A stretch of DNA of 18,907 nt from Promethearchaeia archaeon (GTDB lineage Archaea; Asgardarchaeota; Lokiarchaeia; Sigyniarchaeales; SOKP01), in NCBI GenBank assembly GCA_029856125.1, contig JAHQWJ010000125.1:1-18907 (forward strand), written 5' to 3'. The position numbers and the translations under genes are program-made. Each line of letters opens with the position of its first letter. Positions within the stretch are counted from its first letter, which is position 1. The notes beneath the pieces were generated by a model, which saw nothing but the letters and a program-made list of their open reading frames with translations, was not told the origin of the DNA and ran no database searches. Shown here one piece after another: positions 1-14,129 of this stretch.

Positions 1-1291
1 ATCCTACAGAGATGTCGGCGTAATCTGATGTTAAATCTTCACAAAAATGACAATTATCGCGAGCGTATTTTTGCACTTCTTTGAGGGGTACATCCATTTG
101 CTCTCCAGATTTCAAATTTATTATAAAATTACCGCCTCCAATATTCATTTTGGTAAGTTCGTTAATGTCCTTGTTGAACTGTTCTTTAGCTAAATTAATT
201 ATTCTGTCATAAGGAAAAGCTTCCATACAAAAAAGCCCGATCTTGTATTCTATATTTTTAAAAAACGGTAACCCGCTTGGAAACATAGAACCCTTTTCTA
301 TAGCTTTCATCATGCAAGGCACTCCTACGAATGCTATATTCTCGTACTTCTTACATTGATCTATGATGGTTAAAGAAGGCGAGTTTGCATATTTAGTTCC
401 ACCCGTTTGATATAAATCTTTTACACTTTCTACTATTACAGGTTCCGGCCTCCACAGTTCTTCAGAATGCCGAACAGCTACAATAGCATCAACAAGATTA
501 TTATCTAAAAGATATTCCAATATAGAAGTTACAATACCGCCATCTTGACGAACTTTCTTAATATTATCTTTAGTCGTTGATGCTGAGTAAGCGTTAATAT
601 AAGCTCCAGTTTTGTCAGACCATTTTAAAGATTTGTCTAACTTTTTAATGCTTTTGTTAGCTTGATCTATCGAAAAGGAACGTGGACAGACCGAAAAACA
701 CAACCCACATTTCATGCAAATATCTCCATCAATTTCAAGAGTGTCTGCCGTCACTACAATGGCGTTTACAGGACAAATTGATGAACACCATCCACATTGA
801 CAACATACGCCAGCCTGGAAAACTATAGAAACAGGCTCAAAGTATTGCTCAGTTGGTAATTCTTTCAATTGGTATCTATAAAAGTATTCCTTAACCTCTA
901 CTTCTTTTTCTTCTCCTTTAATTTTTTTAATAACCGTTTTAGTTTTTATCTCTACATGCTCCTGAACATATCCTTGCTCTTTTAGATAAATGACATCTCT
1001 GATAACATTCTCAGCGGGAAAATCTTTAATTTCCTTAACGATTTCTTCTAAAAATAAAGGTTTTTTACCCATTAATTTTTCTAAAACTAATTTTCGCCCT
1101 GTTTCAGCGTCAATCATTGCATCGAGGATTTCGTAAAATTCAACTTCAGTAAATTTACCAACTTTCAAGATTTCATCTTTAGCCTCAAAAAATGCTCTAA
1201 TCTGAAAGTTTCCCGAGGCTTGATATGTGGCTTCCATTAAATCATCAGGCGAAATACCCTGAAATGATTTATTATTTACTATTTGAACCAT
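1..1291 (-). CDS. frhB: FrhB/FdhB-family (coenzyme F420 hydrogenase/dehydrogenase beta subunit) protein with ~150-aa N-terminal extension and 2x[4Fe-4S] domain; 3' end runs off the window
   Basis: Not in the ORF track. Manual translation from ATG 1291 (MVQIVNNKSF...) is open to the window edge. It contains CCQCGWCSSICP and CMKCGLCFSVCP ferredoxin motifs, then the FrhB motifs RQDGGIVT, GGTKY, FVGVPC, IGLFCME and CHFCEDLTSDYADISVG. Confidence 0.9.
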   Translation of the reverse strand, partial: MVQIVNNKSFQGISPDDLMEATYQASGNFQIRAFFEAKDEILKVGKFTEVEFYEILDAMIDAETGRKLVLEKLMGKKPLFLEEIVKEIKDFPAENVIRDVIYLKEQGYVQEHVEIKTKTVIKKIKGEEKEVEVKEYFYRYQLKELPTEQYFEPVSIVFQAGVCCQCGWCSSICPVNAIVVTADTLEIDGDICMKCGLCFSVCPRSFSIDQANKSIKKLDKSLKWSDKTGAYINAYSASTTKDNIKKVRQDGGIVTSILEYLLDNNLVDAIVAVRHSEELWRPEPVIVESVKDLYQTGGTKYANSPSLTIIDQCKKYENIAFVGVPCMMKAIEKGSMFPSGLPFFKNIEYKIGLFCMEAFPYDRIINLAKEQFNKDINELTKMNIGGGNFIINLKSGEQMDVPLKEVQKYARDNCHFCEDLTSDYADISVG

Positions 1292-1350: not shown

Positions 1351-1421
1351 CACTCCCTCTCCTTCGCAAGGTAAGTCATCTTATAACTATTATTTTTTTA
1401 TAAGACTCATCCTAGGGAGTG
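1351..1421 (-). promoter_or_regulatory. Eukaryote-like (Lokiarchaeal-type) SECIS element
   Basis: The minus strand reads CACUCCCU-AGG-AUGAG-UCUUAUAA-AAAAAUAAUAG-UUAUAAGA-UGAC-UUACCUUGCGAAGGAG-AGGGAGUG. This gives an 8-bp lower helix, an AUGA/GA core, an 8-bp upper helix and an A-rich apical loop. It lies directly 3' of genes with Cys-aligned UGAs. Confidence 0.85.
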
Positions 1422-1861
1422 GTTACTACTTTTTGCTTTAATTCCTTATTTTCCATAGTTTTTATCGGATTGGGTCCAGATCGTTTTATCTTTTCGTACG
1501 CATCTTCGACGCTTTTGACGAGCTTATCTGCTTCTGCCCCACTTAACCAATACATATTAATTCGTTGGTTTCCATAACCTCTAGAATCCAATATTCTATT
1601 AGCTAAATCGACATGCCGTTGAGCAGTAAAATTACCTTGTTTAAACTCGCATTCATTTGGTCGTCATCCAACAATCATAACTCCATCAGCCCCACCTTTT
1701 ATCCCATATAAGATGTGTTTTACATCAACTCTTCCCGTACACCTTACTTTGATGATTTTGACTGATGCCGTGTATTTCATTCGAGCAACGCCAGCTAAAT
1801 CCGCAGCAGAATACCCTCATTTCAAACACGCAAACATTAGAATTTTATAATCGTTCTCCAT
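1412..1861 (-). CDS. mvhD: Selenocysteine-containing MvhD/VhuD [2Fe-2S] subunit, 149 aa, Sec15 (TGA 1817-1819) and Sec66 (TGA 1664-1666)
   Basis: Manual translation: MENDYKILMFACLK(U)GYSAADLAGVARMKY...KVRCTGRVD...GADGVMIVG(U)RPNECEF...GNF...SGAEA...GPNPI, ending at TAG 1412-1414. The TGAs sit at the two positions that are Sec in methanococcal VhuD. SD AGGAGGT at 1870-1876. Confidence 0.95.
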
Positions 1862-1866
1862 TTGAT

Positions 1867-3807
1867 TTAACCTCCTTCTAACATTCCGTCAATTTCAGTG
1901 AATAATTGATAATCTCTAAAGTATCTAATGTCTATCGCGTTAGTTGGACAACATGTAGCGCAAATTCCGCATCCATCGCAGTTTATTTCGTCAACAATTG
2001 CCTTTTCTTCGTCAACAACAGTTATTGCATTTTTCGGGCATGCTTTTTCGCATCTCTTACAAGCAATACATAAGTCATTAGAAACTTCTGCAATTATTAG
2101 TTCGATGTCTACTTCTCCTGGAGCGGTTAATTCAGCCACCTTACTCGCTGCAGCTCTAGCTTGAGAAACTGAATACGCGATATCTTTTGGACCTTGGGCA
2201 AACCCTGCAATGAAAACGCCTTTTGTCTTAGTTTCCTGTGGCATTAACCCAAAGTGAGATTCAGTTAAAAATCCATTTATATCGGCATCTAAGTTTAATA
2301 CTCTTGAAATCTGCTCTGTTCCCTTTGAAGGTAACGCAGCAGTAGATAAGATTACTAGATCTGCGCTAATTTTAATGATCTCGTCGGTTAATGACGAATA
2401 CACTCGAATGTTTACATTCTTTGTCTCGGGGTCTTCAGAGAATTCTCCTACTTTTCCCCGAATCATTCTTATATCTGACTGTTTAGCTCTCTGATAATAT
2501 TCTTCGAAGCCCTTTTCGTTAGTCCTCATGTCAATATAACAGATGGTAATATTAGCGTTAGGGAATTCTTCTTTAAGCAATTTTCCGTTTTTTAGTGCTA
2601 ACATGCAACAAACGCCGCTACAATAAGGTCTTTCCGTATCCCGGCTTCCTACGCATTGAATAAACACAATTTCCTCGGGTTCCTTTGAATCCGAGATTCT
2701 GTGAACGTGTCCTTCTAATGGTCCATTTGGAGCAAGAATTCTTTCAAGTTGGGGTTGAGTAATGACATTTTCAAAATTTCCGTATCCATACTCTCCGTAC
2801 GGTTCGTAAATATCCCACCCCGTTGCTACTATAATCGATCCTACCTTGAAAGTAACTTCTTCAGGCACTTGACTAAAGTCTATAGCCTCTAATTCACAGG
2901 CTTCAACACAACTAAAGCATTCTACGCACACATCTCTGTGAATGTCATATAAGAATGGTACGGCTTGTCCAAATGCAATATCAATAGCTCTTCGAGGTCC
3001 TAGGTGTTCGTCAAAGAAATTTGAAGTAATGATAGGACAGACTTCCGTACAAGCCCCGCATCCATTACAGTCATTGTTTACGTACCGTGGTTTCTTTTCC
3101 ACGATAATATTATAATTTCCAACATAGCCTTCAACTCTTTTCACTTCACTATAGCTGAGAATCTCTATATTTTCATGCCGATTGACTTCGAGCATAACAG
3201 GGCCACAGATTCATATCGAACAGTCGTCAGTAGGGAATGTTCTATCTAGTTCTGCCATCCTTCCGCCTATCGTAGTTTTGCTTTCAACAAGAAACACTTT
3301 TATTCCTTCGTTTGCTAGATCTAAAGCAGCGTTCATTCCGGCTATACCCCCACCTACGATGAGAGTCGCTTTTTCAACGGGAACCGTTCTCACGGGAACC
3401 GGTGCCAAGGTCTTTGCTCGGTTAACTCCACTGTTAACTAAGATTTTTGCTTTTTTCAATGCTTCTTCATTATCTTCAGTACACCAAGAACAATGTTCTC
3501 TCACATTGACCATTTGAAAATGGTAAGGGTTTAAATCCGTTTTAGCGAGAGAGCCTCTATAAATTGGTTCGTGAGTTCGAGGAGTTCAAGCGGAAGCAAC
3601 AACACAATCAAGATTTTTCTCATTTATATCATCTATGATTTCTTGTTGCCCACTTTCAGTTCAAAGGAACGCATGAGTTTTCGATATTATGACATCATCT
3701 AAGTCTTTAGCAAATTCAACTAGTTTATCGCAATCTACCTTTCTTTTTATGTTAATTCCTCACTGGCAAGCATAGTATCCAATCCGATGATTTTCAGATT
3801 TTTCCAT
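1867..3807 (-). CDS. hdrA: Heterodisulfide reductase subunit A, multi-selenocysteine form, 646 aa, Sec16/49/74/199
   Basis: Track ORFs 3211-3513 and 1867-3195 share one frame with ATG 3807, interrupted only by TGA at 3760-3762, 3661-3663, 3586-3588 and 3211-3213. It reads RIGYYACQ(U)GINI...AFL(U)TESGQ...VVASA(U)TPRTHE...NVREHCSW...IVGGGIAG...TFPTDDCSI(U)ICGP. It then has four CxxCxxCxxxC motifs, QCVGSR and YCSGVCC. Confidence 0.95.
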
Positions 3808-8005: not shown

Positions 8006-9502
8006 ATGACGGAAAATCCAACTGAACAGGAGTCAGAATCTACTCAATACGATTATTCTTTTGATTATATTCAAAAGAAACTTGAGGGGAAAAAAGACTC
8101 CTATGGAATGTTAATGAAAGAAATTGTGCGGGCAGGTATCTGTACTGAGTGTGGAACATGTGCTGCTGTTTGTCCAGTACTCGAATGGGACCATTTAACG
8201 GGACAACCTAAATTAATAGGAAAATGCACTGGCTGTGGAATATGTTACAATCAATGCCCAAGGACAATAACCGATCCTATTCAACTAATGGGCGAATTCA
8301 AAACGGGATATGTATCAAATACTAATATCCCAGAAGTAATTGGAGCCCAAGATGGAGGAACTGTGACTTCCTTGTTATGTTATTTATTCGATGAACATTT
8401 AATTGATGCCGCTGTCGTTTCAATGAAAGATCCTAATAATCCCTGGCACCCCGTCGCTCAAATCATAACAAATAAAGACGATGCTATTAAAGCTGCTGGT
8501 TCGATTTATTGTCACTCTCAAACCGTTGAAGCATTAATGGACGCAATACGAGAAGGTTATCGTTCAATCGCTTTTGTTGGTACGCCGTGCAATATCGATG
8601 CTGTTGATAAGATGACAAGTTCCCCTGCGGGTATGTTAAAATATTTTATGCGAGCTCACGTTCTTAAAATAGGTCTGTTCTGTATGGACTCTTTTTCTCC
8701 GGAAGCTATTTACCCATTTTTTGAACAAGATGGGATAGATCTGACAAAGGTAGTAAAGATGGACATAAACAAGGGTAAATTCCACATATATTACGACCAC
8801 GATGGAGAACCCATAAAGTCATATACCATTAAACAATTAGATAAATTTAAATCTTCGAGTTGTAATTTCTGTACAGATTTAACTGCTGAAAATGCAGATA
8901 TTTCCGTTGGTTCTGTTGGTAGTGGTCCAAAGAAGAATACAGCTTTTGCGAGAACAGGTATCGGGGCTGAAATTATTGAAGATGCAGCAAGTAAGGGATA
9001 TATTAAAATTGAATCTTACAATGCTATCAACTTAAACGCTGTTTTATTTTTAGCAAAACTTAAGAAAGTTTCGCAATACAACATTCAAAAGCGTAAAGTT
9101 TTCATCGTCAAAGACTCTAAAACACAATCGGAGCCAAAAGTTGAAACAAAACCTGAAGCAGAACAAGCGGTAAAACCATTAGGTTCCAGGAAATTCTTAA
9201 GCGTTAAAAAAAGTATTAACGAGGAAGATGTTGTTCTAAATATTTCGTTGACCAATTCTGTAGGTTATCTCTTGGAAGACTTAAAGATTAGAATTGTTAT
9301 AGTCGAAGAGCTTTTTGAAAAAAAACCTTGGATAACTACAATCAGAGAATTATTTCCTTATGAAACAATAGAAATTGGTTATCCATTAGAAACCGTTAAT
9401 AACGACATAGTCTACTCTAATGTGCTAGTAGAAGCCTCCACGGAAAAATTTGGAAAGGTTTTCTCAAAAACATATAAATTAGCCCCACAAGAAGAAAAAT
9501 GA
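8006..9502 (+). CDS. Second FrhB/FdhB-family protein with ferredoxin domain and extra C-terminal beta-rich domain
   Basis: CTECGTCAAVCP, CTGCGICYNQCP, AQDGGTVT, FVGTPC, IGLFCMD and CNFCTDLTAENADISVGSVGS, then a charged linker and a ~100-aa extension. Confidence 0.9.
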   Translation: MTENPTEQESESTQYDYSFDYIQKKLEGKKDSYGMLMKEIVRAGICTECGTCAAVCPVLEWDHLTGQPKLIGKCTGCGICYNQCPRTITDPIQLMGEFKTGYVSNTNIPEVIGAQDGGTVTSLLCYLFDEHLIDAAVVSMKDPNNPWHPVAQIITNKDDAIKAAGSIYCHSQTVEALMDAIREGYRSIAFVGTPCNIDAVDKMTSSPAGMLKYFMRAHVLKIGLFCMDSFSPEAIYPFFEQDGIDLTKVVKMDINKGKFHIYYDHDGEPIKSYTIKQLDKFKSSSCNFCTDLTAENADISVGSVGSGPKKNTAFARTGIGAEIIEDAASKGYIKIESYNAINLNAVLFLAKLKKVSQYNIQKRKVFIVKDSKTQSEPKVETKPEAEQAVKPLGSRKFLSVKKSINEEDVVLNISLTNSVGYLLEDLKIRIVIVEELFEKKPWITTIRELFPYETIEIGYPLETVNNDIVYSNVLVEASTEKFGKVFSKTYKLAPQEEK

Positions 9503-9566
9503 TTTTTGATTTGATAAAGAAATAAATTTAATGGAAAATTATAAAATTCATAAAAAAATAAGGTGA

Positions 9567-10481
9567 ATAATCTTAAAAATTAGTTTAGTAGGCCTTGGAG
9601 GTTGTGGTAAGACAAGTCTTTACTCCGTAGCATTTGCTGAGACGAAACCGGAGGATACCAAGAAATTAAGTCCAACAATTTTATATGAAACGAGAAGACA
9701 TCCCTTTCTTGGGCTTCAAGTTGGAATTTTCGATTTCGGCGGCCAGGAACAGTACCGAAAAGAGTATATGGACAGGCCAGATATCTTCAAGGGAACTGAT
9801 GTATTAATTTGTGTTGTCGATCTGCACGATCCGGATTCTTTTGATCAAGCGAAGGAATATTTTGAGGGCTTGTTGGATATCCATCGGAAAAATAACGAGA
9901 AACCGAAAGTCCTATTGTTTTTGCATAAATATGATACTGAAGATTACCAAAAAGAGTTATTAGATACAAACGTAAAGAACGCGAAGGATATCTTTGTAGA
10001 CACCTTTAAAGATTACGACTTCGATTTGAAACTTACGAGTATTTATCAGCAAGATGAATTAGCTAAAATATTCCGCGATATTTTGATTTCCTCGTATAAA
10101 GACCTTAAAAAATCTGTAGAAAAAGCTGAAAGTCAACTTGAGGAAATAAAAGCAAAAATAATAATTTCTGATGTTTCTGGTAACGTATTAGTTCACAACG
10201 TTCAAGGCGTTAGTAGTGGTTTGACGCTAAGGGGGGATTTACGGGATTTTATTGACGCATGCAATACTGTAAGAGAGAATATTTTTATGTCTGATTCGTG
10301 CCGTTTCACGGGTAAAAGTGAGGACGGAAAAGGGATCGAGCTCCATATCTTTAAATATATTATCTCCGTATTTGTTATGAAGTCAGGAGAATTAGAAAGA
10401 GAATCTCAGGACAAGTTAAATGTATTGCTTAACGACATGAAATTATTCGCAGATTTAATAATTTCAGCTCACAACGACTAA
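9567..10481 (+). CDS. Rag/Gtr1-like small GTPase with C-terminal roadblock-like domain (start codon uncertain)
   Basis: The frame of track ORF 9768-10481 is open upstream to TGA 9564-9566. It encodes G1 GLGGCGKTS, G2 SPT, G3 DFGGQ and G4 HKYD; His in G4 is Rag-typical. The C-terminal AKIIISDVSGNVLV looks roadblock-like. Confidence 0.85.
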   Translation: MILKISLVGLGGCGKTSLYSVAFAETKPEDTKKLSPTILYETRRHPFLGLQVGIFDFGGQEQYRKEYMDRPDIFKGTDVLICVVDLHDPDSFDQAKEYFEGLLDIHRKNNEKPKVLLFLHKYDTEDYQKELLDTNVKNAKDIFVDTFKDYDFDLKLTSIYQQDELAKIFRDILISSYKDLKKSVEKAESQLEEIKAKIIISDVSGNVLVHNVQGVSSGLTLRGDLRDFIDACNTVRENIFMSDSCRFTGKSEDGKGIELHIFKYIISVFVMKSGELERESQDKLNVLLNDMKLFADLIISAHND

Positions 10482-13482: not shown

Positions 13483-14115
13483 CTAAGCGTAAAAAATCCT
13501 ATATAATTCATTGTAAATCTCCGCAAGTTTGGAGATTCTATTCGGATCGTTTTCTTGTAATGAATGAAGGAGATAAGAGTTTAATCCTTGAGAATTTTTA
13601 ATCCACTCTAAAAAACCTTCCACTTCCGCCTTAAGATATGGATCAACTGAGGGTTGCGCTAATCTACTGCTTATATCAGTCAAACCATTGTCATCGGAAG
13701 CATCTACTTCTGTTTCAATAAATTGTGCTTTTGATCCTTTTTTCATCATTGCTGCTGCCCTCGCTATAGCAGGGTACGCCATATGCATCCAACCTTTCGC
13801 TTTTGGTTTGATATGAGCTATAAGATACGTATCAGTTCCAGGTATGGATGAACCAACTAAGTGTCCTTTTTTCTGTCTGTTAGTCGCTACAAATCTTTCT
13901 GGTGCCATTTGAAGAACTGAATATCTAATATTATTCATATTCACAAACTGAGCGTTACCGCCACCCCAAATAGCTAAAAATCCTTTTATATCTTTCGATA
14001 CCTTCCAATTACCAGTTGAGTGAAGAACTTTGGCATTATTATTAACCACAACTACTTTTGTTGCGTCTGAATAATGTTTTTGTAAGTTTTTTACAATAGA
14101 TTTATAGTTTACCAT
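13483..14115 (-). CDS. Asgard profilin-like protein with ~80-aa C-terminal extension
   Basis: STGNWKVSKD, NIRYSVLQMAPERFVATNRQKKGHLV and YLIAHIKP follow the recalled Loki profilin pattern (TENW.., GIKY....EERxIxTNxxGKGH, xxYxxP). ATG 14115 is preferred over GTG 14121 on SD spacing. Confidence 0.7.
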   Translation of the reverse strand: MVNYKSIVKNLQKHYSDATKVVVVNNNAKVLHSTGNWKVSKDIKGFLAIWGGGNAQFVNMNNIRYSVLQMAPERFVATNRQKKGHLVGSSIPGTDTYLIAHIKPKAKGWMHMAYPAIARAAAMMKKGSKAQFIETEVDASDDNGLTDISSRLAQPSVDPYLKAEVEGFLEWIKNSQGLNSYLLHSLQENDPNRISKLAEIYNELYRIFYA

Positions 14116-14129
14116 AATCACACACCAAT

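Follow-up and report, generated by a model that had tools for sequence, protein, structure and literature searches.

Selenocysteine-rich HdrA proteins of Lokiarchaeia are already on record. Loki HdrA was described with up to four selenocysteines (Sec), distributed over five positions; a VhuD with two Sec always follows it, and a single SECIS covers as many as six UGAs across about 2 kb; its Sec sites were held not to be cluster ligands and were proposed to be unexplored catalytic cysteines (Mariotti et al., 2016; PMC4989117). HdrA selenoproteins have since been extended across Asgard archaea, and the available part of the main text of that study holds no discussion of Sec number or position or of structure mapping (Huang et al., 2024; PMC11227280). 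[quoted passage not shown] The locus described here lies on an 18,907-nucleotide contig of a Promethearchaeia archaeon (JAHQWJ010000125.1, analysed whole and called the window). Its gene type, Sec count, shared SECIS and exact sites are already known (PMC4989117, PMC11227280). The fresh point, probably correct and not found in print in the literature searched, is that the sites coincide with ligands of the mobile shuttle cluster HA3 and with a thiol relay. The first-pass annotation of the window had overlooked the published multi-Sec gene, the role of U199' as an HA3 ligand in 5ODC, and mvhD with the shared SECIS as part of the unit.

The hdrA gene is a single 646-codon frame running from ATG to TAA on the minus strand (window 3807-1867), with TGA codons 16, 49, 74 and 199 as its sole interruptions, just as the first-pass annotation had claimed. 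The plus-strand reading of 1867-3807 was rejected, its translation being nonsense. In window coordinates, the features of the gene are:

1867..3807, minus strand: hdrA, 646 aa, four in-frame UGA (Sec), stop TAA
3403..3807, minus strand: N-terminal domain, residues 1-135, which would bear the shuttle cluster HA3 with the ligand set C14, U16, U49 and U74 (model and conservation)
3766..3768, minus strand: Cys14, an N-terminal ligand position that is never TGA (Cys in 77/77 orthologs and in all nine paralogs)
3760..3762, minus strand: TGA read as Sec16, the second Cys of CxC; local YACQ-U-G, aligning to CHCG
3661..3663, minus strand: TGA read as Sec49, the YMC position and the labile site; local FL-U-TES
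3586..3588, minus strand: TGA read as Sec74, the AAC position; local ASA-U-TP, aligning to AACS/TP
3211..3213, minus strand: TGA read as Sec199, the canonical site, in a CxxU relay with Cys196; local DCSI-U-I, aligning to DCxxC and equal to Cys197/Sec197 of Methanococcales

The read-through translation matches solved HdrA over its whole length (E<1e-189 for 5ODC and 9SFI; E<1e-164 for five full-length entries), and its predicted fold compares with HdrA structures at a TM of about 0.85. The four TGA codons align with the Cys of CHCG, YMC, AACS/TP and DCxxC in all solved HdrA, in keeping with the earlier claim that they match conserved cysteines; at the last of them (DCxxC, codon 199) M. maripaludis 9SFI has X (Sec) and its N-terminal domain is all Cys, in line with the statement that methanococcal HdrA carries Sec solely at that site. 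Furthermore, the domain set of type I HdrA is present (N-terminal Fe-S, thioredoxin-reductase/FAD, inserted and C-terminal ferredoxin domains, from Pfam and structure matches), with Cys or Sec at all cluster positions and a CxxC(U) pair. Glu355 and Lys406 of the FAD site, which from the 5ODC alignment we take to be the conserved residues of the bifurcating FAD, are retained in the alignment and invariant among orthologs. The structure literature regards a Lys at the bifurcating FAD as a hallmark of bifurcating HdrA. Automated annotation does fragment the gene, as had been stated: translation table 11 splits it into 442, 100 and 111 aa. For annotation it matters that databases carry the gene as 442-aa stubs or as full-length TGA=Trp mis-calls, the public gene callers (entries P0001-P0016) having recovered the full-length gene by TGA->Trp, with W at the Sec sites.

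Downstream of hdrA, the same strand carries the partner gene, the recoding element and a further operon gene:

1412..1861, minus strand: mvhD/vhuD, 149 aa, two UGA, 5 nt after hdrA; Pfam FlpD E 2.5e-41
1817..1819, minus strand: TGA read as MvhD Sec15, the 'additional' relay Cys16 (BamF Sec19 by analogy); X in 9SFI_K
1664..1666, minus strand: TGA read as MvhD Sec66, a putative [2Fe-2S] ligand by exclusion of Cys16; X in 9SFI_K
1376..1410, minus strand: lokiSECIS (AUGA, 9-bp stem, 11-nt A-rich loop, GA), directly after the mvhD stop; z -2.65
2..1291, minus strand: FrhB/FdhB-like F420-binding subunit, the next operon gene, truncated where the contig ends (Pfam FrhB_FdhB N and C; 499 aa in relatives)

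Both MvhD TGA codons (15 and 66) are X/Sec in the M. maripaludis structure 9SFI, and a directly downstream vhuD with the two-Sec pattern is constant in 78/78 orthologs. The lokiSECIS, 2352 nt from the first hdrA TGA, is present in 76/78 orthologous loci, and among 60 distinct elements covariation is seen at stem pairs 3-9. One such element follows vhuD and none follows hdrA, and at the sequence level this single lokiSECIS would serve the six UGAs of hdrA and mvhD. A genome-wide scan returned 10 elements, most of them behind TGA-containing frames, against 2-3 in shuffles; an Rfam search of the window did not detect the lokiSECIS. Elsewhere in the genome, a two-Sec hdrA paralog (C129:13586-11562) has a lokiSECIS 20 nt after its own hdrA stop and no mvhD was found directly behind it, making it an exception to the published hdrA-vhuD rule. 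Another lokiSECIS (contig C122, ~12086, minus) follows a ~115-codon ORF ending in ...VHAD-TGA-TGA, which may encode a small protein that terminates in Asp-Sec and is ubiquitin/MoaD-like by eye.

The gene run in relatives is hdrA, mvhD, frhB-like, frhB-like, hdrC/hdrB-like, double-length hdrA and mvhD, and the remainder of the operon in this genome lies on contig C131. The operon stretches examined encode two FrhB-like proteins and no hydrogenase, FdhA or ElpA; the genome has cofD and cofE, and mcrA was not found in it (at 99% completeness). By analogy, the setting is likely an F420H2-fed non-methanogenic bifurcating complex like Elp-Hdr. The window contains other genes worth recording. A second FrhB/FdhB-like gene (8006-9502, plus), outside the hdrA operon, has a ~150-residue extension past the FrhB domain. 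A profilin-like protein (13483-14121, minus; E 2e-6 to Loki profilin 5YED/5YEE) has a ~90-residue C-terminal extension and no Pfam match. The P-loop of a Rag/Arf-like small GTPase (9531-10481, plus) lies upstream of the first ATG/GTG/TTG, so that translation has to begin at a non-canonical start (ATA/ATC/ATT after GGTGA at ~9563) or read through a TGA at codon 12.

Sec recoding of the hdrA TGAs is supported by the predicted SECIS, by the machinery and by Cys/TGA exchange only at Cys columns. Of the machinery components named in the first-pass annotation, tRNA-Sec, SepSecS, SelD and a PSTK-like gene were found, while EFsec/SelB is absent from the assembly. SepSecS scores above its family cut-off, the PSTK-like gene is full-length (E 2e-49) and below its family cut-off, and two tandem selD genes (C24:553-2855) each contain an in-frame TGA. 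The tRNA-Sec gene adjoins SepSecS (C101:1406-1260, minus) and has introns of 27 nt in the anticodon loop and about 30 nt in the T loop, on account of which Rfam RF01852, ARAGORN and motif scans all missed it; it was located by BLAST with the tRNA of a relative, is intron-less in two relatives, and when spliced folds as a 9/4 cloverleaf with a UCA anticodon. A SelB-model search of the genome did not find EFsec: its top matches are EF-1alpha, eIF2-gamma and a short SelB-like GTPase, and a candidate on contig C138 was not upheld. EFsec is present in 7/8 same-genus genomes, and in relatives it stands directly after the gene that here runs off the end of C42 and before the genes of C101; thus, an assembly gap between these two contigs is the simple explanation of its absence. 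Since TGA ends 177/1422 long ORFs genome-wide (12%), it is not globally reassigned.

Among Loki orthologs, TGA occupies position 16 in 77/77, position 74 in 78/78 and position 199 in 80/80, and position 49 is divided between 54 TGA and 24 Cys in 78. All 294 in-frame TGAs of the 80 orthologs (related Promethearchaeota (Lokiarchaeia) MAGs and not independent samples) lie in columns of conserved Cys, and 289 of these TGAs belong to sites 16/49/74/199. The share of TGA is thus 289/313 codons at the four sites and 5/1600 at the 20 ligands of the other clusters, by which comparison of sequences the four-site placement is selected, but graded. The neighbouring Cys 14, 26, 106, 109, 196 and 201 are never TGA among orthologs, the hdrA stop is TAA/TAG in 80/80, and 30 same-genus loci agree with the pattern. 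On a tree with site 49 masked (75 rows, short or truncated ones omitted), the Cys/Sec state of this position changed at least 5 times, and 9 times by parsimony. Nine hdrA paralogs are present in the genome, with Sec at 16+199, 16+199+300, 16+74+199, 16+49+199, all four sites or none; 16 is TGA in all five Sec paralogs, 16 and 199 recur across them, and four paralogs are Cys-only. The Cys/TGA exchange anticipated in relatives is therefore seen at 49 (54:24), with zero TGA off the Cys columns in the 80 orthologs and none of the stops at random non-Cys positions that would have spoken against Sec. Nor did TGT/TGC turn up at the sites in contigs of other sediment studies, which match across the TGAs without difference (X3 2111-3796; X7 2605-3492 and 3562-3781); two further sediment contigs, X4 and X6, appear to be one data set filed twice.

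The five remaining ortholog TGAs lie in the ferredoxin Cys columns 297, 300 (three times) and 613, in loci L066, L111, L130, L136 and L137. Where they stand beside the four sites they give five-Sec HdrA genes, one above the 2016 maximum of four. Similarly, a paralog of this genome (C82:24226-26154) has Sec at 300, a ferredoxin-type cluster ligand.

For U16, U49 and U74 as ligands of the N-terminal [4Fe-4S] cluster the support is deductive, and comes from conservation, from the Cys content of the domain and from the location of HA3. The N-terminal domain of M. hungatei HdrA has only four Cys, at 14, 16, 49 and 74. In 150 diverse representatives (<50% identical to each other) Cys is found at these positions in 145, 144, 150 and 150, respectively, and at the next best position in 106; they are the only near-invariant Cys of the domain, and the Sec sites are hence among its only conserved thiolates. 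The modelled domain (pLDDT 92.6) lies within an rmsd of 0.8-0.9 Å of 5ODC and 8RVU. In 5ODC, HA3 is presumably ligated by five cysteines. By elimination rather than from atomic contacts, we consider it probable that HA3 here has at least three selenolate ligands: four N-terminal ligands would give three Se, and three of them together with residue 199' would give three or four. Only a non-thiolate ligand, such as the conserved His79, would cut the count to two; by conservation, His79 or Glu104 could each substitute for one thiolate. The contrary reading of 2016 predates the 2017 structure and counted four (ferredoxin-type) clusters only, and it appears outdated. One figure legend puts HA3 at the C terminus (PMC12350162); since HA1,2 are assigned to the N terminus in the same paper, the labels appear to have been exchanged.

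A weak likeness between the N-terminal domain (3403-3807) and MvhD (1460-1861; hhalign E 0.008, probability 5%, TM 0.5) pairs U16/U49/U74 with U15/C41/U66 and, if real, would put Sec at equivalent positions of both domains. It was set aside as too weak, and a wide structure search returned generic flavodoxin-like folds only.

The reading we prefer, at a probability of roughly 70%, is that hdrA and mvhD form one transcript on which the single 3' lokiSECIS recodes six UGAs, the product being an ordinary type-I bifurcating HdrA together with the MvhD adaptor. Judging from the structures, the six Sec would then all lie on the mobile, gating portion of the machine. U16, U49 and U74 would bind HA3 together with C14; U199 and C196 would form a thiol relay by the FAD, U199 being able to bind the HA3 of the partner subunit; MvhD U15 would be a relay thiol and U66 probably a [2Fe-2S] ligand; and the five fixed clusters would keep Cys. 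The weakest step concerns function: Se most likely speeds the gated steps (ligand exchange, the selenenyl-sulfide relay and electron entry to HA3) and eases recovery from oxidation, improving chemistry that Cys also does. From the gene neighbours, F420H2 would be the donor via FrhB-like subunits, as in Elp-Hdr, and switching between Sec and Cys paralogs in response to Se could be a by-product.

The first-pass annotation had proposed, instead, that the three selenolates mainly shift the midpoint potential of HA3 and thereby change the energetics of bifurcation. U16 and U74 are indeed fixed in all orthologs, HA3 takes the low-potential electron, so its potential matters, and five paralogs of one genome differ in their Sec sets. 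Nevertheless, Se-for-S ligand swaps move Fe-S potentials only modestly, position 49 switches at least five times among close orthologs (which also argues against a strict need for all three N-terminal Sec), three of the six Sec lie in the relay or in MvhD and are not N-terminal HA3 ligands, and methanogens bifurcate with an all-Cys HA3. A predominant shift in potential is therefore unlikely, and a kinetic or protective role is favoured over it because half of the sites belong to the relay or MvhD and because Cys versions work in methanogens. We likewise doubt the 2016 proposal as applied to some N-terminal Sec, above all U16, as free or hemilabile selenols that form a diselenide or selenenyl-sulfide and are not stable ligands. 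The likeness to MvhD aligns U16 with U15, a non-ligand relay position, and if Cys197' ligates in the crystal one N-terminal residue is maybe spare or exchanging; against this, that likeness is weak, and just four conserved Cys are available to a [4Fe-4S] cluster that in state 1 withdraws from Cys197'.

Evolutionary drift or regulation would account for the sites differently, the extra UGAs being near-neutral hitchhikers under an existing SECIS or mainly a Se-sensing brake that would turn this paralog off under Se scarcity, with all-Cys paralogs taking over. The labile site 49, the sporadic TGAs at 297, 300 and 613, the four Cys-only paralogs of the genome and the replacement of Sec by Cys isoforms in M. 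maripaludis would fit such an origin; but no reversion of sites 16, 74 and 199 is seen in 77-80 orthologs, 16 and 199 reappear among the paralogs, the six neighbouring Cys are never TGA, and a brake would not need ligand positions, leaving it rather improbable. A pseudogene, a sequencing error or a genome-wide reassignment of TGA (to Trp or Cys) could appeal to the absence of EFsec from the assembly and to the database calls that read TGA as Trp. Conservation in 80 genomes at Cys columns only, identity in independent contigs, the 12% of long ORFs that end in TGA and the syntenic place of EFsec between C42 and C101 together make any of these extremely improbable. Beyond the preferred reading of Sec on the gating parts, a bolder one is offered tentatively: Lokiarchaeia may build a [4Fe-4S] cluster with three, in one conformation four, Sec ligands, whose potential or gating kinetics would be measurably unlike those of an all-Cys cluster, and the nine paralogs (0 to 4 Sec) may be graded bifurcation modules. 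The literature searched yielded no description of a three- or four-Sec-ligated [4Fe-4S] cluster and no usable measured potentials of Sec-ligated Fe-S clusters.

The six Sec would mark the shuttle cluster and thiol relay, which three structure papers of 2026 describe as the unsettled part of HdrA-type bifurcation. Since one 135-residue domain occurs naturally with 0 to 3 Sec, the effect of selenolates on a [4Fe-4S] cluster is directly measurable; the residual value of the locus lies in the correction of the 2016 reading and in a clean natural Cys/Sec test series.

In comparison with known systems, the Loki HdrA-VhuD tandems of 2016 have the same SECIS after vhuD (AUGA, 9-bp stem, 11-nt loop, GA) and an hdrA stop that is never UGA. 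The published Loki tRNA-Sec has a T-loop intron only, whereas two introns are present here, and the sites there called non-ligands are ligands as later structures suggest (PMC4989117). Supplementary data 2 of Huang et al. includes a close ortholog (Lokiarchaeia GCA_019894885_U_2) in which X stands at these four sites, and YACQXG is found 54 times in that file (PMC11227280). HdrA/VhuD of M. maripaludis (PDB 9SFI; PMC13518236) has the same fold, with Sec at DCxxU and at both VhuD sites; it differs in the all-Cys N-terminal domain and in belonging to a methanogenic Hdr-Vhu-Fwd assembly, whereas no mcrA was found in the present genome. M. thermolithotrophicus HdrABC-MvhAGD (5ODC), M. hungatei Fdh-Hdr-Fmd (7BKB) and M. 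marburgensis Elp-Hdr (8RVU) have the same four-domain HdrA and share all 24 cluster ligand positions and the FAD-site Lys/Glu, with an N-terminal domain rmsd of 0.8-1.5 Å. These three are all-Cys, whereas the Loki operon, with no hydrogenase or FdhA/ElpA in the stretches examined, combines its Sec-bearing HdrA with two FrhB-like genes.
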